Shown piece after piece: positions 4,731 to 59,295 of a DNA stretch of 64,000 bases. Each line of letters opens with the position of its first letter. Positions within the stretch are counted from its first letter, which is position 1. The stretch spans positions 1 to 64,000 of the IMG/VR virus record IMGVR_UViG_3300036768_001133. One strand, written 5' to 3'. The notes under the pieces were generated by a model. It searched no databases. It worked only from the letters and a program-made list of their open reading frames with translations, and was not told the origin of the DNA. Position numbers and translations under genes: made by a program. This stretch comes from a virus.

Positions 4731-5618
4731 TTATAGAAAATTACCTGTAATTAAATTACTATCTATAATAATACCATTGTAACTATCAGGGATACGACCA
4801 CTTGTAATATGTTGCAATAGCACACAATTTTGCATTTCAAGTCTTGTAATGTTAGGATTAGTGCTATCGCAAACACTTGGCAATGTATTGTGTATTATAC
4901 AATTTTTATAGCTTATTTCTGTTGTTCCTGCACTTCCACTTAAACTATCAAATCTATGATAATGTAACGTCGTATTTTCTCCTAAAATACAATTATCAAA
5001 AACAACTTTTCCGCTATTTATTCTGGCAATAAGTTTGCGTGTCCTATAGTTGTAAAAATGCATAAAATATCCTGTGCTTATTGCAGGCATATTAGTATAC
5101 GTAGTACATTCACTTATATCGGCTCTACTTCCATAAGCCGCTGAAATATTATATCCTTGTATTAAAGAACTCTTTGCAAATAAATTTAAAGTGCTTGAAG
5201 TATTTATTGTAAGTGTAAAACCAATAAGAACACTTTTAATAGATAAATATCCACTGCAATTTGTAGCATTAAGATTTAAAATATAGCCGTTATTACCTCC
5301 TCCTACAATATCTATATATGAACAACTAACTAAATTTATAGTAGATATTTTATTTATTACATTATCATTATTTATTTCATAATATATGAAAATATCATTT
5401 CTACTGCTTAACGTATAACTTCCATTATAGTCCCCATTAAAAATATGTATACAATCCCCATTTTGACAAATATCAAAAGCCCTTTGCAAAGATACAGGCT
5501 TATTTATCTTTCCTAATGCTTGTGCTCTTGTAAGCGTTGTACTACCATTTTCACTTACAAATAATGTTCGTCCTATACTTGGTATTTTCTCACCTGCACT
5601 AATTAAATCTATCCCCAT
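4731..5618 (-). CDS. Beta-helix (pectin-lyase-like) tailspike-type protein
   Basis: TLFVSENG...SLQRAFD...GDCIHIFNGDY cap motif; NCI/NCV stacking repeats. Confidence 0.6.
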   Translation of the reverse strand: MGIDLISAGEKIPSIGRTLFVSENGSTTLTRAQALGKINKPVSLQRAFDICQNGDCIHIFNGDYNGSYTLSSRNDIFIYYEINNDNVINKISTINLVSCSYIDIVGGGNNGYILNLNATNCSGYLSIKSVLIGFTLTINTSSTLNLFAKSSLIQGYNISAAYGSRADISECTTYTNMPAISTGYFMHFYNYRTRKLIARINSGKVVFDNCILGENTTLHYHRFDSLSGSAGTTEISYKNCIIHNTLPSVCDSTNPNITRLEMQNCVLLQHITSGRIPDSYNGIIIDSNLITGNFL

Positions 5619-5620
5619 AA

Positions 5621-6427
5621 TTAGTATTGCATTTCTATTATTCTTAACTGACCCGAAGTTACTGAAAAGTTAATGCTTGGCAATGCTTGTCTATGCTGAC
5701 TATTTGCCGTAAATATTATTGGTGGAAAAGTCTCATCATAAAATAACCCATTGATAGTACCAGCTCCTCCACTATGAAATATAAACGCTACACTATAAAT
5801 TCCTGAACTTGTCGCTCCAAAAAAAGGTGCAGTGTAATCAAACTGCAAAATATTATGAAAACTTAATGGACTTGGCGAAGATATGAAATTGTATATCCCT
5901 GTTACATTTGTATCTATATTTGCTATATAAGATAATATAGATGCTATATTAGCATCTATATTTCCCATATATACATTGATACTTGCAACATCTGTTTGTA
6001 TTGTACTTAATATAGTGCTAATACCTGTTAAAGTGCTATCCATATTGACTAAAGTACTATCTATATTAGACAATGTACTATCCATATTAGTAGTAGTATT
6101 GTCTATACTTGTTAATAGTACCTCTAAATCTTGTATGTTTGTATCTATGTTAGTAAGAAGTGCATCTATATTAGCTATATTAGTATCTATATTAGATAGG
6201 TATGTATTTGTAGTAGTTATCAAACTTTCAACATCATCTACCGAATTGTATATGTTTGCAAGTGTACTATTAGTAACTACTAATTTATTATCTATATCTT
6301 GTAATTCTGCTAATATAGCATTTAACTCGGCAGAACAATTACAACCACTCACAGAGGTTAGTAGTTCTATTATTCGCCTTGTCCTTAACTCTATCTGCTT
6401 AATGTTATCAAATTGCTCTGACTTCAT
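5621..6427 (-). CDS. Long heptad-repeat coiled-coil protein (fibre shaft-like)
   Basis: 7-aa periodicity NIDTNIA/NIDSTLV/NMDSTLS over more than 100 aa; beta-rich C-terminal domain. Confidence 0.65.
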   Translation of the reverse strand: MKSEQFDNIKQIELRTRRIIELLTSVSGCNCSAELNAILAELQDIDNKLVVTNSTLANIYNSVDDVESLITTTNTYLSNIDTNIANIDALLTNIDTNIQDLEVLLTSIDNTTTNMDSTLSNIDSTLVNMDSTLTGISTILSTIQTDVASINVYMGNIDANIASILSYIANIDTNVTGIYNFISSPSPLSFHNILQFDYTAPFFGATSSGIYSVAFIFHSGGAGTINGLFYDETFPPIIFTANSQHRQALPSINFSVTSGQLRIIEMQY

Positions 6428-8706
6428 AGCACATTTTTAATTTCTTTTCTTCTTATTATTTCTTTACTTTTTTGCTCTAATGCCACTGCATTCTCATATT
6501 CTTTCCTTTCCAAATTTAATAACTCTTGTTTTAACTTCAAAATTTCTTGCTTATATTTTTTATCTATTTCATTCTTTTCTTTCTCTAATTGTGCTTTCTG
6601 TAAGTTTTCATTCCTTGCTATCTCTAACTCTAACATCTTTATTTCTTTCATCTCTTTTAGTTTCATCTGTTCTATTTGCAGTTTTATCTCCATCTCTTTC
6701 ATCTTCATTTCCATTTCTTTGTCAGGTTGATTGGCTTGCTGTTGCTTCATAGCTTCCATTTGCTTTTCTGCTTCCTCTATCTTTGATAATATCTTACTTT
6801 CTAACTCATTTATACTATCTACCTTTAATAACCTAATTATATCACTTGCTTTCATCATTTGATTTTGCATCATACTTCCTAACATACCTTTTAATTCCTC
6901 AAAATACCTATTCTCTTTTACATTGTCCGTCATAAATATACCATAATCAGCAAGCAAGAAATCCTGACTTAACTTAAATATTTCCTGTTTCCCATCTCCT
7001 AATACATATGTTAAAGGCGTATTAACATTATGAATGTAATAATAATGTTTAGCATAATTCAAAAATCCTTCTAATACTTCCTTAAACACTTTGCTTTGAA
7101 AATAATATAATACTGCTGTGGCATAACTTCCTTGCCTTATTGCTCTATCTATCTGCCCTACTAAATCTTTTTGAAACATTTGTCCTTGCCTTTGCCTATT
7201 AAATCCACTTATCCTATCTACTTCATTTCTAATATCCTCTAACATTTGCGTTATTACAGATATACTTGCATCTAAACTATCATTATAGCTTTGAAATTGA
7301 TTAAACTGCCCTTGTCCTAATGAACTATCTATTATTAACAATCCTAACTTTCTGTAATACAATAAATCGTGTAATTCTAAACCTTTTGGTAATTGCGATA
7401 TATCATATATTACCCCTTTTACACCACTTAAAGCTATCATTCGTTCTCTATGATAGTTTAAGATATTATACAACTCTTGCAAATCCTTTAAATAATATAC
7501 TAAACTAAACTCCTCGCCTGTACTATCTATCTTAAACTCTAATCCCCCATAATGCAACTTGACATAATAAGGATTGCTAAATGAACGCATTTGTATATTA
7601 CTCTTCCCTATCTTATCCCATACATATATATCACTACCTATACAAACAAACTCATACAATTCTTGCATATACCTGCTCTCTTTACTCTTTATCGTTTTTC
7701 TATTAACATTATCTTTTTCTGTTAATAGCTTTACATAATTGACACCATATTTCCCTTCTATTTCAGCAAGTATTCGTTTAGATATGCTCTTCCATTGACC
7801 AATATACACCTCTATCTTATCTTGTGTATCTTGCAAATAATAATTTGGATTGTATCCTAAATCTTGATAATAACTCTTTACCATCTCTACAAAATGATAA
7901 TACTCGTTAGTAAGATAGTAATTTGATTGCCTATCTAACTTTTCTTTATCTTCATCAGTCAAATAATCTTGGTATCTATCTAATATCTGTTCCCTTGTCA
8001 AATATAAACGCTCACAAATCCAATTGCTATCTGCTATGTTTTCTATCCCTTCCTCGTTAGAATATACTAAATTGTAACTTGGTATTACCCTAATCCCTAT
8101 CTTACTTTTATAGTTTCCTTCCTCATATCTCCAAAAACACTTACCTACTTCTAATATACTCGCAAATAAAGCAGTCCTTATCCCCTTAAAATCTAAACTT
8201 AACTCAAAATATTTTAATAACTTCTCACATAATATTTCTACTTCCATTAAATAATCTCGCCCTATATTTTCTTTTAATTGCCTTAACTTACGCTCATCTA
8301 ATACCTCCATCTGCTTTGCACCCGCTAATGCCTTCTCAAACTCGTTATACAAAAACTTCATTAACTCTATATGTACCTTGTACTCCTTATACAATAACCC
8401 ATCTTCATCTATCCTACGTATATGATAATTGTATATCTGCTCCGTCTCCTCCCCTAATGCTACCTGCAAAACAGGTCTTATTAAAGGATAATTCTTTAAC
8501 TTTACAGGATACTCCTTCCCAAACTCCTTTGTAATATACTCAAACTTCTTTTCCGATAAATTACCCTGCAAAATATTATACACTAAATAGTCCTTTACCC
8601 TCCTGCTATAATAATGATTAAAACTATTCCTTATAGCATCTATATTCTCCTTTAACCAATCCCTATTCTTGTCCTTTTCTGATATGTTCTGTCTTGGTAA
8701 TAACAT
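6424..8706 (-). CDS. Portal protein (crAss-like)
   Basis: 760 aa; KNYPLIRPVLQVALGEE, LKDLQELYNILNYHRE, ISGFNRQRQGQ, C-terminal coiled coil; downstream of TerL. Confidence 0.88.
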   Translation of the reverse strand: MLLPRQNISEKDKNRDWLKENIDAIRNSFNHYYSRRVKDYLVYNILQGNLSEKKFEYITKEFGKEYPVKLKNYPLIRPVLQVALGEETEQIYNYHIRRIDEDGLLYKEYKVHIELMKFLYNEFEKALAGAKQMEVLDERKLRQLKENIGRDYLMEVEILCEKLLKYFELSLDFKGIRTALFASILEVGKCFWRYEEGNYKSKIGIRVIPSYNLVYSNEEGIENIADSNWICERLYLTREQILDRYQDYLTDEDKEKLDRQSNYYLTNEYYHFVEMVKSYYQDLGYNPNYYLQDTQDKIEVYIGQWKSISKRILAEIEGKYGVNYVKLLTEKDNVNRKTIKSKESRYMQELYEFVCIGSDIYVWDKIGKSNIQMRSFSNPYYVKLHYGGLEFKIDSTGEEFSLVYYLKDLQELYNILNYHRERMIALSGVKGVIYDISQLPKGLELHDLLYYRKLGLLIIDSSLGQGQFNQFQSYNDSLDASISVITQMLEDIRNEVDRISGFNRQRQGQMFQKDLVGQIDRAIRQGSYATAVLYYFQSKVFKEVLEGFLNYAKHYYYIHNVNTPLTYVLGDGKQEIFKLSQDFLLADYGIFMTDNVKENRYFEELKGMLGSMMQNQMMKASDIIRLLKVDSINELESKILSKIEEAEKQMEAMKQQQANQPDKEMEMKMKEMEIKLQIEQMKLKEMKEIKMLELEIARNENLQKAQLEKEKNEIDKKYKQEILKLKQELLNLERKEYENAVALEQKSKEIIRRKEIKNVL

Positions 8707-8729
8707 ATATTAAACACGTTTTTTATACA

Positions 8730-8737
8730 CAAATATA
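8730..8737 (-). promoter_or_regulatory. Bacteroidota sigma-A -7 element (TATATTTG) upstream of the portal gene
   Basis: Matches TAnnTTTG, about 24 bp before the start codon. Confidence 0.55.
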
Positions 8738-8777
8738 AAATTTTTATTTTTCTATCCCTATTACATAATAAAAAAAA

Positions 8778-9227
8778 TTATGTATTAGACCTATTATCAA
8801 ATACATAATCTATTACCTTGCCTCTATCCTTGTAATATCCCTTATAGATAAGTTTAGGGTTTATAGCATATACTCCACGACCTATGCGTATTAAAACATT
8901 ACAAGATACCAAATTATATATGCTTTTTTCTACACACCTTATACTAATACCTAATGTATCCCCTATTATACCCTTATTACGTTTATTTAATACAATATGC
9001 ACCAAATCACTACCATAATAGACCTCTCCTAATAAATAGAATAATATCCTATAATCTGTAATATTCACTAAACAACTACACCAACTCATATCCTCCACAT
9101 ATAACTGCACAAACATTTCTACCTCTACACGCTTCACTATACTACTACGCTCCACTAATACACTACCTCCACCTACATTCGTAGTGTCTAAACGCTCATA
9201 TATTACCTTCCTTGTTCGCTTGGACAT
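8778..9227 (-). CDS. RepL-like winged-helix replication/maintenance protein
   Basis: HTH (IGDTLGISIRCVEKSIYNLVS) plus GRGVYAINPKLIYKG; paralogous to 16239..16721. Confidence 0.75.
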   Translation of the reverse strand: MSKRTRKVIYERLDTTNVGGGSVLVERSSIVKRVEVEMFVQLYVEDMSWCSCLVNITDYRILFYLLGEVYYGSDLVHIVLNKRNKGIIGDTLGISIRCVEKSIYNLVSCNVLIRIGRGVYAINPKLIYKGYYKDRGKVIDYVFDNRSNT

Positions 9228-9254
9228 ATACTATTTTTATATGAAAAAAACTTC

Positions 9255-9320
9255 ATTAACGAACTATTGGTTCGGTATTAACGAACTATTGGTTCGGTAT
9301 TAACGAACTACTGGTTCGGT
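9255..9320. repeat. Iteron-like array A: 3 x 22 bp ATTAACGAACTA(T/C)TGGTTCGGT
   Basis: Tandem copies at 9255, 9277, 9299; internal dyad CGAAC-N5-GTTCG; just upstream of the RepL-like gene. Confidence 0.9.
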
Positions 9321-9481
9321 ACTTTTTTCGTTAATTCCTTATCTATCAAGCAGATACGTATTCATTTGCTATTATCTCACTCTAGCAAAAACTATTACCT
9401 AAAACTACATAAAAAAAATAACAAAAATACCTTATCTAAGGCATATTTGTTACTCCTATGTATAAACCTAACTCCTAAAAA

Positions 9482-9910
9482 CTAATTCTCAACTTTGCTA
9501 ATATCTACCTTTTCAAAATTCATCACTAACCTAAACTTCCCCTTCATCAATATATCACTCACCCTATACAACCCTCTCCTAACCCTCTCTAAAAAACCAT
9601 AATCCTCTAATACCCTCAATATCATTAACAAATATACACGCTTCACACCTAATAACTCCATCAAATACCTCATACCCTCCCTGTCCCTCGTGCTAAATAA
9701 ACCATTCCCATATAATACACTTATCTCATATATAGCCTTCATACAACGTGTAAAATTTATTAAACGCTCATCTCCTAAACCCCTCCCCATCATATAACCC
9801 ATAAACTCTATCATATCATATACATTCCCACCCCCTACAACTACCTCTATATAACCATTCCCTATCTCCCTAAAATTAAAAAACTCCTTTAACTTTACAA
9901 ACCCTTTCAT
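9482..9910 (-). CDS. Putative winged-helix DNA-binding protein
   Basis: LMELLGVKRVYLLMILRVLEDYGFLERVRRGLYRV. Confidence 0.55.
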   Translation of the reverse strand: MKGFVKLKEFFNFREIGNGYIEVVVGGGNVYDMIEFMGYMMGRGLGDERLINFTRCMKAIYEISVLYGNGLFSTRDREGMRYLMELLGVKRVYLLMILRVLEDYGFLERVRRGLYRVSDILMKGKFRLVMNFEKVDISKVEN

Positions 9911-9921
9911 AATATAATAAT

Positions 9922-11772
9922 TTATCCAAATACAAATTTATCCCCCTCCCTACGCCATGTAGGAAACTTAAAACTACTACTACGCTCCTCAAAACCTAAA
10001 CGCAACTCCTCATCATATATCAAACATAACATACTCGCTATCGTCCTGTCATACTCATTCCCCTCAAAATTAAAATTCATTATGTCTTCCACTTGCTCCC
10101 TTATCCATAACTTCTCCATACCCTCCTTCAAATACTTACTAAACCTTTCCACAGCAAACATCTTCCTCCTATAATCCATAACATAACCATACTTGTTCGT
10201 TACCCTACTATACTTTAACCCTATATTCAATAACCTCGGACTACTCGCTAATATACTACCCCAACCTACCTGCTTCAAATACGAAATTATACCTATCTTA
10301 CTATGCTCCACCATCACCTTCGCATTGTAATACAAACATAAACTTAATACACCCTCGTAAAAATCCTCTACATTGCTCGGTCTATCTACATACTCCGCAA
10401 CAAACTTCCCCTCCAACCTGTCAAATACATATACAGCCCCCTTACTCTTACTCCATAAACTCTTGTCTTGGTCATAACTATCACAACCCGCTATGTACCT
10501 CCCCTCCTCCACTACCCCACCTACACGTATAGGCTCGTCTATTATTACAAAATTCCCTAACCTGTCCTCCTTAAACTCTACCTCCACCTCAACACCACTC
10601 CTATATCCATTACAATATAATACACCCCTCTTCACTATTTCCCTATACTCCCTATCACTTATCAATAACAACTCCTCTAACCGCTTCCTCACAAACGAAA
10701 ATGGCGTTATATTGCTTACTAAAAACGCTTCATTTACCTCAAACGGCATCTCTTGTATAAAACTCTCATATGCCCCTATATCACCACTCTCTAATAACTT
10801 GTTACGCTTCCCCTCTAAATAAACCCTCGCCCCAACTTCATCACTTACCCCATCCTCACCATAATACCCCTCTAACTTCTTGTAAGCAGGTATAAAATAA
10901 CATACCCTCTTCCCATTATCAACCTCAAAACTATACAAATTAAAAGCATCAGGATTAAAAAACATATCCCTCGCCTCTATACTACCACCACTCTTCATCT
11001 CTCCACCAGTACCAAATAATATCGCTACACCAGTCCTTATACTACCCCTGTACAAACTATTCTCCACAGCCTTGTAACTATCCTTCAAATTGCTCTTCCA
11101 ACTACCTACCTCATCTAATATAACCCTCCTCGGTCTCCCACCCCTCGCCTTACCACTATCATCAAATATTATCATCTCTACCTCACTATTAAAACCCTTT
11201 CGCAACCTCTCCCCCTTCTCCCCTATATACTCTACCCCACTCATTATATACCCCTCCTTGTCCTTTATCTTACTATGACGCATCTCCTTCGGCAAACTAT
11301 CTAATCCCTCCACCATCTTCTTCCATAACTTTATACCATGTGGATACGTACTCGCACCCAATAAAGCATAACTATTCCTGTAAAATGTATAACTATGCGA
11401 TAATATACAAGCCCCTATGTAACTCTTACCATAACCCCTCCCAGTTATTACAAGCAAATTCTTCCCACTACTAAATGCTAATTCCACTAAATAAAATAAC
11501 TCCCTGTCCTCCTCACTATAATTCGGATAACCTAATACTACCTTACCACCCTCTAACTTGTTTATCTTAAAATAATTCAAAAAAAAATAATACTCCCCAG
11601 TTATCAACTTACCCCCTACTTCATACCCGTATAAACACCTATTCAACTCCTCCCTCCACCAACCTATATACCCCTCCTCTCCCTCTACATAAGGACAACC
11701 TAACCTCGCCCTAATCAATTCATCTATATACCTGCGCTCCATAATAAAATATATTTTAATAAAATATACCAA
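9922..11772 (-). CDS. terL: Terminase large subunit
   Basis: Walker A TGRGYGKS, Walker B VILDEVG, GTGGEM, RNaseH-like YIAGCDSYD...DRTIASM; crAss-type N-terminus ITGEYYFFLNY. Confidence 0.93.
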   Translation of the reverse strand: MVYFIKIYFIMERRYIDELIRARLGCPYVEGEEGYIGWWREELNRCLYGYEVGGKLITGEYYFFLNYFKINKLEGGKVVLGYPNYSEEDRELFYLVELAFSSGKNLLVITGRGYGKSYIGACILSHSYTFYRNSYALLGASTYPHGIKLWKKMVEGLDSLPKEMRHSKIKDKEGYIMSGVEYIGEKGERLRKGFNSEVEMIIFDDSGKARGGRPRRVILDEVGSWKSNLKDSYKAVENSLYRGSIRTGVAILFGTGGEMKSGGSIEARDMFFNPDAFNLYSFEVDNGKRVCYFIPAYKKLEGYYGEDGVSDEVGARVYLEGKRNKLLESGDIGAYESFIQEMPFEVNEAFLVSNITPFSFVRKRLEELLLISDREYREIVKRGVLYCNGYRSGVEVEVEFKEDRLGNFVIIDEPIRVGGVVEEGRYIAGCDSYDQDKSLWSKSKGAVYVFDRLEGKFVAEYVDRPSNVEDFYEGVLSLCLYYNAKVMVEHSKIGIISYLKQVGWGSILASSPRLLNIGLKYSRVTNKYGYVMDYRRKMFAVERFSKYLKEGMEKLWIREQVEDIMNFNFEGNEYDRTIASMLCLIYDEELRLGFEERSSSFKFPTWRREGDKFVFG

Positions 11773-11773
11773 C

Positions 11774-12289
11774 CTATATCAACCTGTCTATTAAACCCTC
11801 CTCCATATTCCCCCTCCTACGCTTACTGCCAGATACACCCCCTAACCCTAATACCAATCCCAACTCCTTCCTCAATTTCACCATATCTAATATCGCCTTC
11901 ACCTTCTTCGGCTCACTCTCTACATCTATATCACTCCCACTATAATCCCTAACTACCCTGTCTATACGCTCCACTAACCTCCTATAAACACGCTCCTCCT
12001 GATTGCCTACCTCCTCTAATATCCTATCCACTAAATTAACCAATACCCCCAATAAATTACTATACTCCTCCCTGCTCATCTCCCTACTAAATATGTCCCT
12101 GTATATCACCTCCCCACGCAACGTAATGTCCCCATATACATATACACTGCAATAATACCAATATACATACCTCCTCAAAAAATATTCCTCAACCTCCCCT
12201 AAACCTACTACCAAATTACGCCAATATAAACGATAATCCTCACTTACCTCATATCTATCCCCAATACGCTCTATTATACCTAATTCCAT
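11774..12289 (-). CDS. Putative terminase small subunit
   Basis: Immediately upstream of TerL; C-terminal RRGNMEEGLID. Confidence 0.5.
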   Translation of the reverse strand: MELGIIERIGDRYEVSEDYRLYWRNLVVGLGEVEEYFLRRYVYWYYCSVYVYGDITLRGEVIYRDIFSREMSREEYSNLLGVLVNLVDRILEEVGNQEERVYRRLVERIDRVVRDYSGSDIDVESEPKKVKAILDMVKLRKELGLVLGLGGVSGSKRRRGNMEEGLIDRLI

Positions 12290-12292
12290 ATA

Positions 12293-13063
12293 CTAATCCC
12301 CTTTTTTACTTATACACTTGCATACACCATATAACTCACTAATATCTAAACTCTCACCAACCCCATAACGCTTGTTACCATAATTCACCCAACCTATATT
12401 CCCCAACCTGAACCTTATCGTAAAATTATTCCCATTCCTGCCATAATGCCCAAAATCTAAACTACTATCACCTCCCCTTAACCTTAATAATAACCTTAAT
12501 AAACTACCCCATAAAGCCTCTAAATACCCGTGAAATACTAAATGACCATAATCACTACATAACATCCTATACCTCCATAAATAACTACCTAATACATCCC
12601 CTCCCCTCAATATACCCCTGTAAAATATACCCATTACCCTCAATAAATAAAAATATACATATAACCTCCAATGAAATAAATACCTATCCTTTATCACTAC
12701 TACATTATACCCCCTCTCCAATATCTCCCTGTACATCAACCCATAATCTATATCTATAAACCTGTTTATCCTTAACCTGTAATCCTGTAAATAATATATC
12801 TCCCTTAAACAAACACCATTGTAAAATAAACCATTCCCCATCACCATTATACTATAATAATCCCCCTCCCCCTCCCCACCTAATAACCAATCCTCCATCA
12901 ATAAACCCCCATATATACCACCACTTATACATACTAAACCATTGCAATTCCTATGACTATACATTATGTTCATCATAAACATAAATAATATCTCCCCAAT
13001 TATACCACTATACCCATAACCACGCATTATACCCCTAATACGCTCCTTTAATGAAATAACCAT
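12293..13063 (-). CDS. Hypothetical protein with extreme G/R/Y/L bias
   Basis: 256-aa ORF with 0 Pro, 1 Ala, 1 Thr, 1 Gln. Confidence 0.55.
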   Translation of the reverse strand: MVISLKERIRGIMRGYGYSGIIGEILFMFMMNIMYSHRNCNGLVCISGGIYGGLLMEDWLLGGEGEGDYYSIMVMGNGLFYNGVCLREIYYLQDYRLRINRFIDIDYGLMYREILERGYNVVVIKDRYLFHWRLYVYFYLLRVMGIFYRGILRGGDVLGSYLWRYRMLCSDYGHLVFHGYLEALWGSLLRLLLRLRGGDSSLDFGHYGRNGNNFTIRFRLGNIGWVNYGNKRYGVGESLDISELYGVCKCISKKGD

Positions 13064-13278
13064 AACAACCTACAATTTCATAAAAAAATACAAAAATAAA
13101 AATAAATCCCTACAAAATTAAAAACTTATACCACTACTACAAACAAAAATCTAAAAATTGTCCGATAATAATAACAAAATACTATAAATCATAAAATAAC
13201 CAAATAACCTAAAAACATCTTGATAAACATAAAATATGCCAATGAACATAAGGGTAATACCCAAAGTACCCCCCAATC

Positions 13279-13635
13279 GTGAAACTAAATGAAATTCGTA
13301 TGAGAAAGAAACAAGAAAATCTTGCCAAAGATTTTGACGCTGCAGTCAAACACAACAGGCAGGTATTGTTGGATTTAGGTATAAATCTAACAACAGCTAA
13401 AAAGGGCACATTTGAGGTGTCACTTTCGAAAAAGAAAGTTTCAAGAAGAAACTTCACAAAAAACGAAGTGGAGCAAAGGGAGCTATTCTTCATTAGCTCC
13501 AAATGCGGGAGTCTAAATTTTCCTGCAGATATGCTTGTGCTAACCAGTCCTAAGGTTAGCACAAAGTTAGAAGTGGCTCAGATTGAATATAACCAACGAG
13601 GTTATATTCAAAGGGTTATTGGTTCGTTCCAATAA
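13279..13635 (+). CDS. Hypothetical early protein (first plus-strand gene; start may be ATG 13300)
   Basis: 118-aa ORF followed by a terminator. Confidence 0.6.
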   Translation: MKLNEIRMRKKQENLAKDFDAAVKHNRQVLLDLGINLTTAKKGTFEVSLSKKKVSRRNFTKNEVEQRELFFISSKCGSLNFPADMLVLTSPKVSTKLEVAQIEYNQRGYIQRVIGSFQ

Positions 13636-14946: not shown

Positions 14947-15525
14947 ATGGAGTTCATTATTGAATTAAGCAGGTTGAGGGAAACTCCCTGCGAAAGATAC
15001 CTTAAACATTTTGAAAATGGGAAAGTAGATGCTCTCAAGCTATTTAGAGAGCTTGGACAGAAATACGAATGGTTATACAACCATTCGGATTATGATATTA
15101 TAAGATTTGAAATAGAAAACGGGATATTTAATTGGGAAGAATATAGTTACTATGTTCCCCAATATTGTCCTGAATATTTTGATGGAAATAAATACAATTG
15201 GAGAGAAGATAGCTGGGCAATAGTTCAATATTGTCCAGAGCATTTTGATGGGGATAAATACAACTGGGAAAAAGATAGTTGGGCAATAGTTAAATTTTGT
15301 CCTGAATACTTTGATGGAAATAAATACAACTGGAAAGATCAAGGTTGGGCAATAGTTAAATATTGTCCTGAATACTTTGATGGAAATAAATACAATTGGG
15401 AGAAACATAGCTATTATGTAGCTATGTATTGTCCTAAATTGTTGGACAAGAATAAATACAATTGGAGAGAAGATAGTTGGGCAGTATCTGAATATTGTCC
15501 CGAACTATTGAAATATAAACCTTAA
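14947..15525 (+). CDS. 22-aa repeat protein, paralog 1 (6 repeats)
   Basis: About 63-aa conserved N-domain plus repeats W-xxxS(W/Y)(A/Y)(V/I)xxYCPxxxDxxKYN. Confidence 0.85.
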   Translation: MEFIIELSRLRETPCERYLKHFENGKVDALKLFRELGQKYEWLYNHSDYDIIRFEIENGIFNWEEYSYYVPQYCPEYFDGNKYNWREDSWAIVQYCPEHFDGDKYNWEKDSWAIVKFCPEYFDGNKYNWKDQGWAIVKYCPEYFDGNKYNWEKHSYYVAMYCPKLLDKNKYNWREDSWAVSEYCPELLKYKP

Positions 15526-26661: not shown

Positions 26662-27075
26662 TTGGAAGAGCAAATAATATCTGTTATTAAAAACATAGTA
26701 CCATATCCTTTTGAGGACTTATGTATATTATACATAAGTCCCAAAGGGTATGTCAGACGTACAAAAGCAGATGCTTGGAAAAAGCGTAAATGCGTAATAG
26801 AATACTATGCCTATAAAGATTTACTACGTAATAGCATAGAAGGTAAATACATAGCTAATGAGGTACTTAAAGTAGTGTTCCTATTACAAGTACCACAAAG
26901 CCTATCTAATAAAAAGAAAAATGAACTATACTATACGCCTCATAAGAAAAAGCCTGATATAGATAACTTGGTGAAAGCTCTATTAGATACCTTTCACAAA
27001 CAAGACAATATAGTGCATACTATCTATGCACATAAAATATATGCTCCTTTTAATGCTATTGTATTACTAACCTAA
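26662..27075 (+). CDS. rusA: RusA-like Holliday junction resolvase
   Basis: PHKKKPDIDNLVKALLD...QDNIV. Confidence 0.85.
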   Translation: MEEQIISVIKNIVPYPFEDLCILYISPKGYVRRTKADAWKKRKCVIEYYAYKDLLRNSIEGKYIANEVLKVVFLLQVPQSLSNKKKNELYYTPHKKKPDIDNLVKALLDTFHKQDNIVHTIYAHKIYAPFNAIVLLT

Positions 27076-27088
27076 AAGTACAAATCTT

Positions 27089-27559
27089 ATGATTACCAAA
27101 GAAATCTTAGAAGCCCTAAAAGAAATTAACCTGCAAAAAGATTTTAACGAAGAAGATAAGAAACTTATTACAAATCTTTTACAAAATAAAGTGTTTAATA
27201 TCTATTACGTTATCAAACACTTGGAAAAAGATATAGACGAGTACAAAAATATTATAGACAAATACAAAAGTAAAATAAACAATACTCAACACAAAATAGA
27301 TTTTCTCAAAGACTTAATGCTTCAAGCAGTTAAACAAGAAAATATCAAATATATTACTGATGAAGATGGTGTTATACTACATACTATCTCACAAAGACAA
27401 TCTTATAGTATTATCATTACTGATGAAAACAACATACCTGATAACTTCAAAAAAGTTTCTTATACTATTGACAAAAATAAATTAAAAGATTATATTGCAG
27501 AAGGTAATATCGTAGAAGGTTGTTATATTGAAACAAAAGACTATTTAACCATTCACTAA
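27089..27559 (+). CDS. Siphovirus Gp157-family protein
   Basis: Coiled coil followed by IITDENNIPDNFKK...IDKNKLKDYIAEGNIVEGC. Confidence 0.8.
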   Translation: MITKEILEALKEINLQKDFNEEDKKLITNLLQNKVFNIYYVIKHLEKDIDEYKNIIDKYKSKINNTQHKIDFLKDLMLQAVKQENIKYITDEDGVILHTISQRQSYSIIITDENNIPDNFKKVSYTIDKNKLKDYIAEGNIVEGCYIETKDYLTIH

Positions 27560-27561
27560 CT

Positions 27562-27744
27562 ATGCAACAAACACAATCTCTTAAAACTGTTCAAACACAA
27601 GATATTGAACAACTATTTGAAAAAAATAAAGAAGAAATACTTAAAAAAATTTTTGATATTAAGGATAAATATGGGCTTTCTTACAAAGAACTGACCTATG
27701 AAATCGTTAAATTCCTTTACCAAGAAATATATTTGTTTAGATGA
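27562..27744 (+). CDS. Hypothetical protein
   Basis: 60-aa coupled ORF. Confidence 0.5.
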   Translation: MQQTQSLKTVQTQDIEQLFEKNKEEILKKIFDIKDKYGLSYKELTYEIVKFLYQEIYLFR

Positions 27745-28424
27745 TTTACGTAAGCTTAGAACCTATACCAAAAGATTTTATTAAAACCAATGACAATTAT
27801 GTCCTCATCTATAATGATATAGATGAGAACTGCTTAAAATATAAAACCTTTCAAGATAAAGAAACTTTATATCAATCATATTACGAAAAAATACATCAAG
27901 GATATTGTATCATCATCCACGGACAAGATGATTTTGCTAAACTAATGACCTTTGATAGCAATAAAATACATACCGAATGTATAAATAGCATATTTATTTT
28001 GCCAAGCATCTATCAAGGTATGGAAAACTATAATCTGTCTGATATATTACGTATTACTGCCTTACAAAACGTTTTTACTAAACAATATGTAGAAAATATT
28101 ATACGCAATAATGTAATCTTTCAAACCGAAGGTATATTGCAAAACGTATCTTACGAGCTTTGCAAATCTGTTTTGTTACCTAATAAAACTATCAAAGATG
28201 TAAGATATGCAGGATTTATACTTTCATATGAACTTAAAAATATAGAAACATACGGAGAATTAAGATTTTCATCTGTCTCTGCAACTGATATAAAAGATTT
28301 AGAACTATACAATTTCTTTAACTATATGCTTGATAAATCTAATGATACTTTTATATTTGGCGATACAAATACACTTATCATTCATAAAAAAAATATAATG
28401 AATCAAGGATACTTAATACTATGA
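27741..28424 (+). CDS. Hypothetical protein
   Basis: 227-aa ORF. Confidence 0.6.
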   Translation: MIYVSLEPIPKDFIKTNDNYVLIYNDIDENCLKYKTFQDKETLYQSYYEKIHQGYCIIIHGQDDFAKLMTFDSNKIHTECINSIFILPSIYQGMENYNLSDILRITALQNVFTKQYVENIIRNNVIFQTEGILQNVSYELCKSVLLPNKTIKDVRYAGFILSYELKNIETYGELRFSSVSATDIKDLELYNFFNYMLDKSNDTFIFGDTNTLIIHKKNIMNQGYLIL

Positions 28425-28639
28425 AAAAAGACATCAATCCAAAAGCTATCTTGCAAGGAACAAAAAACTTTTTGTTCAAAGATGATAAAATAGAAGAAAA
28501 AGCAAAAGAAAGACTTGCTATCTGTCAAGTATGCGAACATAATAGCCAAAAGAAAATTGCTACTTGCAATATCTGCGGTTGCATACTTGTCCTTAAAACA
28601 AGACAAGATGAACAAAAATGCCCTATAAACAAATGGTAA
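28421..28639 (+). CDS. Small Cys-rich phage protein
   Basis: ERLAICQVCE...CNICGC...KT...CPINKW. Confidence 0.7.
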   Translation: MKKDINPKAILQGTKNFLFKDDKIEEKAKERLAICQVCEHNSQKKIATCNICGCILVLKTRQDEQKCPINKW

Positions 28640-29127
28640 CACAATTGCCTAAGATTCTGCAAACTCAATATATCATCAATGAATATAATAGTTTGTATAA
28701 TACTATATCCCAAAAACTATTAGATAAGTTTGGGATAACTATTAGTATCTACGAACTGCAAAGTATCTATAATACCTACATTACTAAACAATTGCAAGAT
28801 GAAAAACAAAAAGATATTTGCGATTTTTTAATGAAAGGCTTTGATGTACAATACTTGTTTTCAGTTTATAGTTTTGATATAAAATATTTACTTGACTTGC
28901 ATAAAACAATTAAATATCTTGAAAATAAAAATATCTCTATTCATACTTTACTTATAGCACAAGACTATTTTGTAGAATATTTAAAGACATCATATACACA
29001 TACCTATCATTTAGAAGAACTACCTGACTATCTATACAATGCTATTGATTGGAAAGTAGTTGCTGAATACCTAAAAAAAGATTATCACAAAATAGAAATC
29101 TTTAACCAATCCTACTATTACAAATGA
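28618..29127 (+). CDS. Protein with ArdA-like (antirestriction) C-terminal domain
   Basis: EELPDYLYNAIDWKVVAEYLKKDY...YYY resembles the ArdA IPxxLxxYIDYExxAxxL motif. Confidence 0.5.
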   Translation: MPYKQMVTQLPKILQTQYIINEYNSLYNTISQKLLDKFGITISIYELQSIYNTYITKQLQDEKQKDICDFLMKGFDVQYLFSVYSFDIKYLLDLHKTIKYLENKNISIHTLLIAQDYFVEYLKTSYTHTYHLEELPDYLYNAIDWKVVAEYLKKDYHKIEIFNQSYYYK

Positions 29128-59205: not shown

Positions 59206-59221
59206 AATATTTCTTGTTTAG

Positions 59222-59295
59222 TTCCCCCAGCAGGACTTGAACCTACAACCTTCTGATTATGAGTCAGATGCTCTAACCAATTGAGCTATGGGGGA
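59222..59295 (-). tRNA. tRNA with CAT anticodon, most likely tRNA-Ile2 (lysidine type); CCA not encoded
   Basis: TCCCCCATAGCTCAATTGGTTAGAGCATCTGACTCATAATCAGAAGGTTGTAGGTTCAAGTCCTGCTGGGGGAA; full cloverleaf; C4:G69 and C5:G68. Confidence 0.9.

Follow-up and report, generated by a model that had tools for sequence, protein, structure and literature searches.

Extreme cytosine depletion and guanine loading on the sense strand of the putative terminase operon of a crAss-like phage

Introduction

Pronounced differences in base composition between the two strands of a DNA are known from several systems. In animal mitochondria, compositional asymmetry of the heavy strand accompanies strand-displacement replication; Szybalski's transcription-direction rule and the purine loading of mRNAs in thermophiles concern the mRNA-synonymous strand; and the transcript-primed origins of ColE1 and T4 serve as comparators for R-loops associated with GC skew. 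Here we describe a strand asymmetry in a virus, in a window that comprises the first 64 kb (positions 1 to 64,000) of the 72,795-bp IMG/VR record IMGVR_UViG_3300036768_001133, where a putative minus-strand operon that includes the terminase gene TerL is almost devoid of C, and loaded with G, on its sense strand. According to PMC4083084, R-loops form preferentially where the non-template strand is G-rich, and the displaced strand is a substrate for deamination. The Rho utilization (rut) sites are described in PMC9160355 as C-rich and G-poor with YC repeats.

The record carries a 123-bp terminal repeat. Judged by the families of its TerL and portal proteins in a PHROG search (phrog_6681, E 1.8e-76, and phrog_6547, E 1.5e-66, respectively), the phage is crAss-like (Crassvirales in the wide sense), and its TerL is 27-28% identical to those of crAss-like phages of Bacteroides and Flavobacterium. 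We use "zone" for the minus-strand operon at 9482-13063, which consists of a 256-aa open reading frame (ORF), a 171-aa ORF, TerL and a 142-aa ORF, together with its leader to ~13.25 kb. Relatives are referred to by contig and by TerL identity to the window: L006 (58%), L007 (45%), L008 (40%) and L003 (27%).

Results

Besides the 4 ORFs of the zone, 52 others were called in the window. The coding strands of the zone ORFs contain.32-.37 G and.02-.06 C, and their GC skew is.72-.88 overall and.56-.93 at single codon positions, as compared with -.16 to.67 for the 52 other ORFs. Over the zone (9-13 kb), GC skew of the plus strand in successive 1-kb intervals is -0.68, -0.72, -0.74 and -0.82; these are the most extreme of the 64 intervals, the next being -0.61. 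The 5 longest G-free runs of the plus strand all fall within the zone, at 9767-9953 (187 nt), 9498-9639 (142 nt), 12822-12943 (122 nt), 10565-10682 (118 nt) and 13054-13159 (106 nt), while in 200 mononucleotide shuffles of the window the longest such run had a mean of 75.3 nt and a maximum of 116 nt. The asymmetry is real and far beyond chance. At third codon positions, G rises from a baseline of.13 to.38, A falls from.41 to.21 and C from.08 to.04, so that the shift from A to G is larger than the loss of C; zone C is ~.044 at every codon position, and purine content is hardly altered (.62 in the zone vs.58). Genes throughout the phage share the direction of the bias, at coding-strand skews of ~.1-.4, and the other late mRNAs contain.11 C (8-14% by gene) and.19 G.

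The proteins of the zone are depleted in P, A, T, Q, H, N and K, and enriched in G, R, V, Y, M, W, C and E. The 256-aa ORF has no P, one each of A, T and Q, and 5 H; the 171-aa ORF has one each of P, A, T and Q; and the 142-aa ORF has no P or Q, one A and 2 T. In TerL, P+A+T+Q+H amounts to 8.4%, compared with 17.0-20.5% in 62 of 66 homologs and 11.5-13.1% in three closer homologs. The original prediction, made from the sequence before this analysis, had pointed to the G-free runs at 12822-12943 and 13054-13159, to this depletion of residues and to enrichment in G, R, V and Y, and had staked its case on a skew stronger than that of other genes; each of these statements held when quantified, with 2 still longer runs and with M, W, C and E added to the enriched residues. 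As a separate observation, the summed fraction of I, V, Y, W, R, E and L, which is used as a marker of thermophily, is 52.7% in the 4 proteins of the module and 40.4% in the other late proteins; the raised index is probably a by-product of the nucleotide bias.

Along the DNA, the skew has the shape of a plateau with step edges. Proceeding downstream from the divergent switch, the gene skews are.82,.79,.72 and.88, and then.56,.50 and.08. At the upstream edge, the plus strand contains 8 G in the 250 nt from 13001 to 13250 and 50 in the 250 nt from 13251 to 13500; at the downstream edge, G/C counts are 7/84 at 9501-9750 vs 26/50 at 9251-9500. It had been proposed by eye that the bias strengthens toward about 13.2 kb and fades through the portal gene; what we observed instead is level across the 4 genes and sharply bounded, with 2 genes of intermediate skew beyond it. 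The divergent intergenic region and leader of the operon (13064..13278, minus strand) form the upstream edge, at which the strand skew flips. The sense strand of this leader contains.20 G,.04 C,.21 A and.54 T, and is free of C over the stretch at 13054-13159. Some 20-50 nt ahead of the ATG of the 256-aa ORF are two candidate matches to the consensus of the -7 promoter box of Bacteroidota.

The 256-aa ORF (12293..13063, minus strand) is the first gene of the operon (G.32, C.03, skew.82); it had no PHROG or Pfam match, and its ratio of nonsynonymous to synonymous differences per site (pN/pS) is ~0.1-0.2 against near-identical strains. Directly upstream of TerL is the 171-aa ORF (11774..12289, minus strand; skew.79), whose counterparts at the same place are 51% identical in L006 and 39% in L007, and whose family has 12 representatives at E<=0.001. 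Its AlphaFold model (pLDDT 79.8, pTM 0.72) had no fold match at E<=0.001 in PDB or BFVD, and as modelled it would be a conserved small helical protein without a known family; family and fold searches on the small zone ORFs likewise gave no matches. In the crAss-type TerL (9922..11772, minus strand; skew.72), two motifs do not vary within the clade, the Walker-type GxGKS and the CDSYDQDK block, and pN/pS is ~0.1. The last gene and the most extreme of the 4 is the 142-aa ORF (9482..9910, minus strand; G.33, C.02, skew.88), which had no family match in PHROG or Pfam and shares only a short RGLY-type match with a 151-aa ORF of L007. In P0077, a public predicted protein of 123 aa, the beginnings of the 142-aa and 171-aa ORFs are joined with a piece from the C-terminal part of TerL; it stems either from a variant that is rearranged or defective, or from faulty assembly of this low-complexity region.

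Taken together, the 4 zone genes have pN/pS ~0.2 against 2 near-identical strains. By our own arithmetic, random codons of the zone's composition would include ~9% stops, so that reading frames of 142-616 open codons are very unlikely without selection. The zone proteins are thus real and under purifying selection.

The same zone was found at the same place in 2 diverged relatives. From the divergent switch downstream, gene skews are.82,.81 and.55, then.36,.16,.27 and.29 in L006, and.76,.76 and.63, then.38,.23 and.17 in L007. In L008, TerL has a skew of.18 and its neighbouring ORFs range from -.07 to.29, none being raised; L003 has no skew zone. In the window, L006 and L007 alike, the skew begins at the divergent switch and falls after TerL or after the last small gene, and the portal genes of L006 and L007 are unskewed (.29 and.17). 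The first ORF of the L006 zone (275 aa) has no sequence similarity to the 256-aa ORF of the window, and both have a skew of.82. In L007 the zone ends, after TerL, in a perfect 13-bp stem followed by a T-run. Recurrence of the zone at one place in lineages so diverged indicates that the trait is inherited, operon-limited and lineage-specific.

Comparison with relatives also suggests that the pattern has 2 layers. A non-coding spacer inside the zone of L006 (9544-9976, 433 nt, between a 168-aa gene and TerL) is C-free over ~345 nt and contains.04 C,.12 G and.42 A; a regional mutation pressure from A to G is thus argued against by a stretch that lost its C and kept its A. Further, the proteins P0069, P0071, P0072 and P0004, which are known as proteins only, have few residues with C-containing codons and are not rich in G (P0069: P+A+T+Q+H 3.5%, G+R+V+Y+E.34; P0004, a TerL: 12.6%, G.068). 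Within the TerL and 171-aa families, members grade from normal to depleted with relatedness. Because the L006 spacer is C-free without enrichment of G, and because C-poor proteins that are not G-rich occur in further lineages, the layers can be separated: avoidance of C looks to be the older one, regional, affecting coding and non-coding sequence and present in more lineages, and replacement of A by G looks to be younger and restricted to coding sequence. Scans of viral contigs with the 171-aa alignment, P0069 and P0071 yielded no DNA of further lineages.

The spacers of the relatives have features of their own. That of L006 (9544-9976) contains about nine copies of an 11-mer of the GTTTGTAATAA type and a tandem 7-nt repeat at its end, and the intergenic region upstream (7880-7960 of this contig) has a tandem repeat that is rich in GT and contains G-runs; from their sequence, the elements at 9544-9976 and 7880-7960 could be a packaging or origin element. 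The 2 intercistronic spacers of L007 do contain C, in long hairpins at 777-903 and 1340-1480 (-37 and -44 kcal/mol; z -4.8 and -6.3) whose 5' arms are C-free and made of short G/A/T repeats and whose 3' arms are G-free and made of C/A/T repeats. Such hairpins may be RNA processing or stabilising sites between cistrons.

The direction of change in TerL was scored in gap-free columns at which the other three of the window, L006, L007 and L008 agree. On the lineage of the window we counted A>G 31, A>T 18, T>G 15, G>A 10, G>T 6, T>C 5 and T>A 5, with C>A 3, C>G 2, A>C 2 and C>T 1 as the rarer changes. T>G outnumbers G>T in all 3 skewed lineages (15:6, 17:4 and 15:4, in sum 47:14), and C>G accounts for 7/14, 13/26, 13/26 and 10/15 of the losses of C at codon positions 1 and 2, compared with only 2 of 21 recent changes away from C in the flanks. 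Gains of G by T>G and C>G are not produced by deamination. Among recent substitutions, A>G occurs at 10.0 per kb of A in the zone vs 8.4 in the flank (10 and 22 events), and G>A at 6.9 vs 12.2 per kb of G. We estimate that extra A>G mutation alone would need a roughly six-fold rise, which is not seen in these small counts. Total substitution density (9.1/kb in the zone vs 14.8 in the flank) was discarded as a measure of rate in favour of synonymous sites, the flank being inflated by a hypervariable 295-aa gene, and amino-acid replacement relative to 14 of 62 distant TerL homologs was too noisy at ~30% identity.

Sequence context constrains both kinds of change, as was found when the context of the retained C was examined along the lines first proposed. 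In all 3 lineages, AAA, GAA, AGA, GGA and NCA have given way to G-ending codons, while TTA, GTA and ATA are unswitched (AAA/AAG 7/58, GAA/GAG 11/97 and AGA/AGG 4/78, vs TTA/TTG 81/41 and GTA/GTG 55/22). Third-position C persists at its baseline frequency (~17-22%) before A, at 44/197, 33/191 and 32/182 in the 3 lineages as compared with 529/2698 elsewhere, and is nearly abolished before G (8/399) and before T (11/341). The C that remains is mostly placed between purines (ACA 36, GCG 32, GCA 20 and ACG 13 of 158). The most depleted dinucleotides with C are TC (odds.37-.70) and CT (.39-.54), TT being unchanged (1.07,.88 and 1.04); depletion of TC and CT follows from the availability of C-free codons for Ser and Leu. 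We read these rules as a finite pressure balanced by codon-level constraints, which is hard to obtain from context-free hydrolytic deamination; we know of no such context dependence for that reaction.

The composition has consequences for the predicted properties of transcripts. In the sense RNA of the zone, none of 176 80-nt windows has more C than G, and YC occurs 0.95 times per 100 nt (0.7 per 80 nt) vs 3.0-3.7 in other late genes; in the antisense RNA, C exceeds G in 176/176 windows, with 17.6 YC per 80 nt. By composition, the sense RNA offers no loading site for Rho, and the antisense RNA would be an ideal one. Mean G in the zone is.34, runs of at least 3 G number 112 (89.7 +/- 7.5 in shuffles), and G reaches at least 40% in 24 of 140 100-nt windows, vs 0 of 1699 in other late genes. 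A G-rich RNA on a C-rich template has, as far as base composition can tell, the makeup that favours R-loops.

Several features adjoin the zone. A hairpin followed by a U-run (9397..9473, minus strand; -21.4 kcal/mol, z -4.2, with 0 of 200 shuffles as good) comes after the operon and is a candidate terminator at its downstream edge. Just outside, and upstream of the next gene (149 aa), are three tandem 22-bp repeats (9255..9320, no strand assigned), each containing a palindrome, the copies being 95-100% identical. Tandem palindrome-bearing repeats also occur after the skewed operon and before a small winged-helix gene in L006 (11874-11942 and 12351-12380) and L007 (3592-3637), as a separate set in each phage and with sequences that differ between phages; their appearance is that of operators or iterons recognised specifically in each phage. 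The 149-aa gene, which is RepL-like with a predicted winged helix (PF05732 RepL, E 3.8e-10), and the portal gene occupy 6424..9227 on the minus strand and have the intermediate skews of.56 and.50. From ~13.2 kb the genes run leftward to position 1 and past it, reaching 29.5 kb if the genome is a circle; the rightward block covers 16 kb (13.3-29.4 kb) and encodes a DnaB-like helicase, Erf, RusA and Gam. No polymerase was found among the family matches. Two giant ORFs, of 4093 and 2882 aa, are candidates for the giant virion proteins of RNA-polymerase type that mark crAss-like phages. The last four to five rightward genes (26662-29127) have coding-strand skews of -.03 to -.16.

Strains differ sharply on the 2 sides of the divergent region. 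Up to a mosaic junction at ~13251-13300, strains and public runs agree in the late region at 98-99% identity, and beyond it the early region is only 78% identical or unalignable: identity of one strain (L005) to the window drops from 98.7% to 78% at 13251, and the contigs of 4/4 public runs cease to match at ~13279-13300. Between 14.8 and 19.8 kb, public contigs have many joints, skips and loose ends, so that the early region is highly variable between strains; it contains a 192-aa ORF (14947-15525) composed of repeated YCPEYFDGNKYNW-like units. In the late region, the 295-aa gene at 4731-5618 is hypervariable among near-identical strains (pN.068 vs pS.019 against L005), the sort of pattern expected of a host-recognition protein. 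The sole tRNA gene of the window (59221-59295) has a CAT anticodon and could read Met or, if modified, ATA, which makes up 59-87% of the Ile codons here. At least half of the stretch's words were found in 18 rows of public runs, and 20 rows from 16 studies contain all or part of it; labels are hot springs, microbial mats, sediment, wastewater and aquatic, and one of the matching runs may be the source sample. There was no RNA run among the matches listed, the two rows guessed to be RNA containing only 0.11 and 0.05 of the words. A scan of genome contigs gave one match, a near-identical contig (L013) in a bin labelled uncultured Cytophagales, and this binning is a weak hint that the host belongs to that group.

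Discussion

From the composition, edges, conservation in 3 lineages, purifying selection and direction of changes that we observed, we infer a single transcript, selection rather than mutation bias alone, and a function for the pattern. The reading that we prefer, to which we assign a probability of about 45%, is a long-maintained composition regime that is tied to the operon, acts on the transcript or on the non-template strand, and is fed by deamination. It would be confined to one transcription unit, the terminase operon, which opens the leftward late block at the divergent control region and whose sense strand (mRNA and non-template DNA) would be kept nearly C-free and loaded with G. Avoidance of C would extend over the whole unit, coding and non-coding, with C retained only where the arms of hairpins need it; the exchange of A for G, limited to coding sequence and accompanied by G-rich amino acids, would be a later addition. 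We think that selection is the main force maintaining the regime and that it acts on some nucleic-acid property, either of the transcript or of the strand laid open by transcription; much of the raw change probably comes from C>T and A>G deamination of that strand in hot surroundings.

Several observations weigh against this reading. A deamination-type excess is present on the window lineage, in TerL (A>G 31:10) and in the portal gene (A>G 71 vs G>A 21, C>T 27 vs T>C 12, T>G 9:9, in a spectrum of three taxa with no outgroup). Transitions are the commonest mutations, so selection and mutation bias alike would use them first, and parsimony on proteins 45-58% identical undercounts multiple hits. 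Synonymous divergence (pS) is higher in the zone than in six flanking genes (.0176 vs.0119, and.0170 vs.0097); this is what a mutational cause predicts, although the ratio of 1.5-1.75 rests on 11-13.5 differences (12 vs 13.5, and 11 vs 11) and is not significant. Neither can the non-coding stretches that served as controls be called neutral, since the L006 spacer has its ~nine 11-mers and the L007 spacers have their hairpins. The unity of the transcript is deduced from sequence, and a simple scan for consensus terminators lists none on the minus strand at the end of the zone. Other late mRNAs already have more G than C, so that the extreme is not obviously needed to avoid Rho. No canonical G-quadruplex motif occurs in the 3.8 kb, which disposes of G-quadruplexes as the function. 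Dinucleotide preferences do not follow the nearest-neighbour energies of RNA:DNA hybrids, which, computed by hand, fit AAA>AAG and ATT>ATA and fail for C before T and for NCA>NCG; hybrid energy was dropped as an explanation. Finally, nothing explains why only the terminase operon is affected.

The main rival, which we consider unlikely though it deserves to be taken seriously, is pure transcription-linked mutation bias, in which non-template DNA would be exposed for long periods, for example in self-reinforcing R-loops stabilised by the G-rich RNA itself, and at high temperature would lose C (C>T) and A (A>G) with no function selected. Polarity and operon limits fit it, as do the A>G and C>T excess on the window lineage, the lean of every gene of the phage in one direction, the raised pS and the hot spring and mat labels of the runs, which imply that deamination would be fast there; the displaced strand of an R-loop is a substrate for deamination (PMC4083084). 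It does not account for the net flow from T to G (47:14) and the frequent C>G, for the L006 spacer that is not enriched in G, for third-position C that is undepleted before A and for A that is not replaced after T, and the recent rate of A>G (10.0 vs 8.4 per kb of A) is far from the roughly six-fold rise required. Exposure linked to replication, by which synthesis would start at ~13.2 kb and displace the parental minus strand leftward, leaving it single-stranded until lagging-strand priming at ~9.4 kb, is improbable in our judgment. The displaced strand would have the right polarity, the step at 9.4-9.5 kb adjoins hairpins and repeats, and the phage encodes a DnaB-like helicase, Erf, RusA and Gam with no polymerase found. 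Skew flips not only at ~13.2 kb but again at ~26.5 kb inside the plus block, ~3 kb before the genes change orientation, so that part of it follows the strand, which suggests replication. Yet the skew is ungraded across the zone (.82,.79,.72,.88), genes to the right of the switch have ordinary values (.14-.31), and two long hairpins inside the L007 zone do not stop the skew; the transversions, the L006 spacer and the context rules count against this explanation as well. The original prediction had favoured just such persistent single-strandedness, by replication or at a genome end, on the model of the mitochondrial heavy strand. Of that likeness, a C- and A-poor, G-rich sense strand that starts at the skew flip near 13.2 kb survives and the gradient does not, and edges that coincide with the operon fit the proposal poorly. 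Likewise, the expected C>T and A>G excess over homologs is there, in the portal gene and for A>G in TerL, but is accompanied in TerL by the T>G excess and by C>G as about half of the losses of C. The original interpretation is partly supported, and non-template DNA may still have been exposed while it was transcribed.

An equally improbable source is a cytosine-directed activity of the host, be it a cytidine deaminase acting on single-stranded DNA (ssDNA) or RNA, C-specific RNases or chain-terminating CTP analogues of the viperin type, whose footprint or escape from which we would be seeing; the message for packaging, an essential one, would then have been rid of targets. Avoidance of C reaches more widely than loading with G and is probably older, depletion is strongest in TC and CT, and the retained C is mostly between purines; but other late messages of the phage keep 8-14% C, the loss of TC and CT follows from codon degeneracy for Ser and Leu, and loading with G is left unexplained. 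Targeting by a deaminase, the other suggestion made at the outset, fits poorly if it was a single event, the same pattern being present in relatives whose TerL is 58% and 45% identical; when relatives were compared, as had been proposed, L006 and L007 had this pattern at the same place and L008 (40%) did not. Tuning of translation, with AAG, GAG, AGG and GGG and without NNC codons setting the level or timing of terminase through the tRNA pool, seems very improbable: the switch from A to G is coding-only, codon-specific and alike in 3 lineages, but loss of C at positions 1 and 2, the C-free leader and spacer and the rewriting of a conserved enzyme are unexplained, and the one tRNA of the window has a CAT anticodon. 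A foreign origin, from a donor with such composition genome-wide, is scarcely credible. The mosaic junction at ~13.25-13.3 kb is in its favour; that junction, however, divides the whole late region from the early region and not the zone from the rest, the late region is conserved at 98-99% as a single block, three diverged lineages share the position of the zone with decay downstream, and the TerL and 171-aa families grade from normal to depleted with relatedness.

The function of the maintained regime is a matter of conjecture. That late transcription is kept from terminating and antisense transcription is blocked strikes us as doubtful; an R-loop for the start of replication or for regulation is quite doubtful; and escape from a cytosine-acting activity is hard to favour. 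Further candidates were rejected. Structure-free mRNA is a modest effect at 37 C (-19.3 kcal per 150 nt vs -18.3 to -25.0 elsewhere, the portal gene being equally low), and at 65 C the predicted structure of zone RNA is -2.1 kcal per 150 nt vs -1.5 to -4.3 elsewhere. UV damage at dipyrimidines with transcription-coupled repair fits C between purines but not A>G, C before G or restriction to a single operon. Avoidance of TG as a pause signal fails in that TG is not depleted at codon junctions. Canonical G-quadruplexes were dealt with above. A bolder proposal, which we offer as speculation and think unlikely to be right, is that an essential operon has been recoded to be nearly C-free and G-loaded, leaving ~15 amino acids in use, because the nucleic acid itself does a job. 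It could be a polarity device at the early/late junction, where the sense transcript could be neither terminated nor attacked via cytosine and would pair tightly with its template, and antisense transcripts would be killed; alternatively, it could form an R-loop that starts replication or couples replication to packaging.

We found no description of such a case in the literature on crAss-like phages, phage GC skew and cytosine-free coding strands, supplements lying outside the search. If selection holds the pattern, a nucleic-acid property can outweigh protein composition, and the zone is a natural experiment on reduced amino-acid alphabets, in which a conserved motor enzyme, TerL, has shed about half of its P, A, T, Q and H and neighbours built from ~15 amino acids are predicted still to fold. 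Selection would also point to a further layer of control where crAss-like phages switch from early to late genes, with termination, R-loops or escape from defence as possible components. If the cause is mutational, this is among the strongest local transcription-linked mutation biases known to us and a model for runaway skew at high temperature. Either way, the sequence signature can be searched for in other phages.

Comparison with known systems

The zone resembles the heavy strand of animal mitochondria in that C and A are scarce and G and T abundant on one strand, the encoded proteins are shifted, and the asymmetry begins at a point where the strands switch. It differs in forming a 3.7-kb plateau within one operon, as opposed to a genome-wide gradient that follows the time spent single-stranded, and in gaining G by transversion. 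Skew does not grow monotonically with distance from a start but steps within 250 nt at the edges, and the effect in non-coding sequence is weaker than in coding sequence, the L006 spacer lacking G enrichment (G.12) and the leader having.20 G, although these stretches may be functional. With Szybalski's rule and the purine loading of thermophiles the zone shares the direction of bias on the mRNA-synonymous strand and the thermal habitat labels, and its shift to more E, R, V, Y and W and fewer A, H, Q and T is like that of thermophile proteomes. Purines are, however, nearly constant (.62 vs.58), and the zone shows G in place of A together with loss of C, in one operon and far more extremely. As in viral footprints of the APOBEC type, the target base is depleted on the strand exposed as ssDNA and TC is the most depleted context, though CT is depleted equally; unlike them, there is no matching rise in T, G enrichment goes unexplained, the context is explained by codon degeneracy, and the pattern is stable across lineages with TerL 45-58% identical.

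To our knowledge, no coding operon has been described as recoded to exclude Rho. The variables are the same as those of rut sites and C>G bubbles in PMC9160355, the antisense RNA of the zone being extremely rut-like (176/176 windows) and its sense RNA the inverse of a rut site.

The zone differs from GC-skew R-loop zones in being protein-coding throughout and in lying in an AT-rich genome (G 33%, G+C 37%). A threshold of ~40% G for such zones is reached in 24/140 of its windows, and G-runs are mildly enriched with no canonical G-quadruplex. Positive skew of.72-.88 is carried by the non-template strand from the intergenic region, with its putative promoter, onward, and the zone adjoins a possible origin. 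Its G-rich non-template strand over a C-rich template, extending for kilobases from a promoter, is like what PMC4083084 describes for CpG-island promoters and immunoglobulin switch regions.

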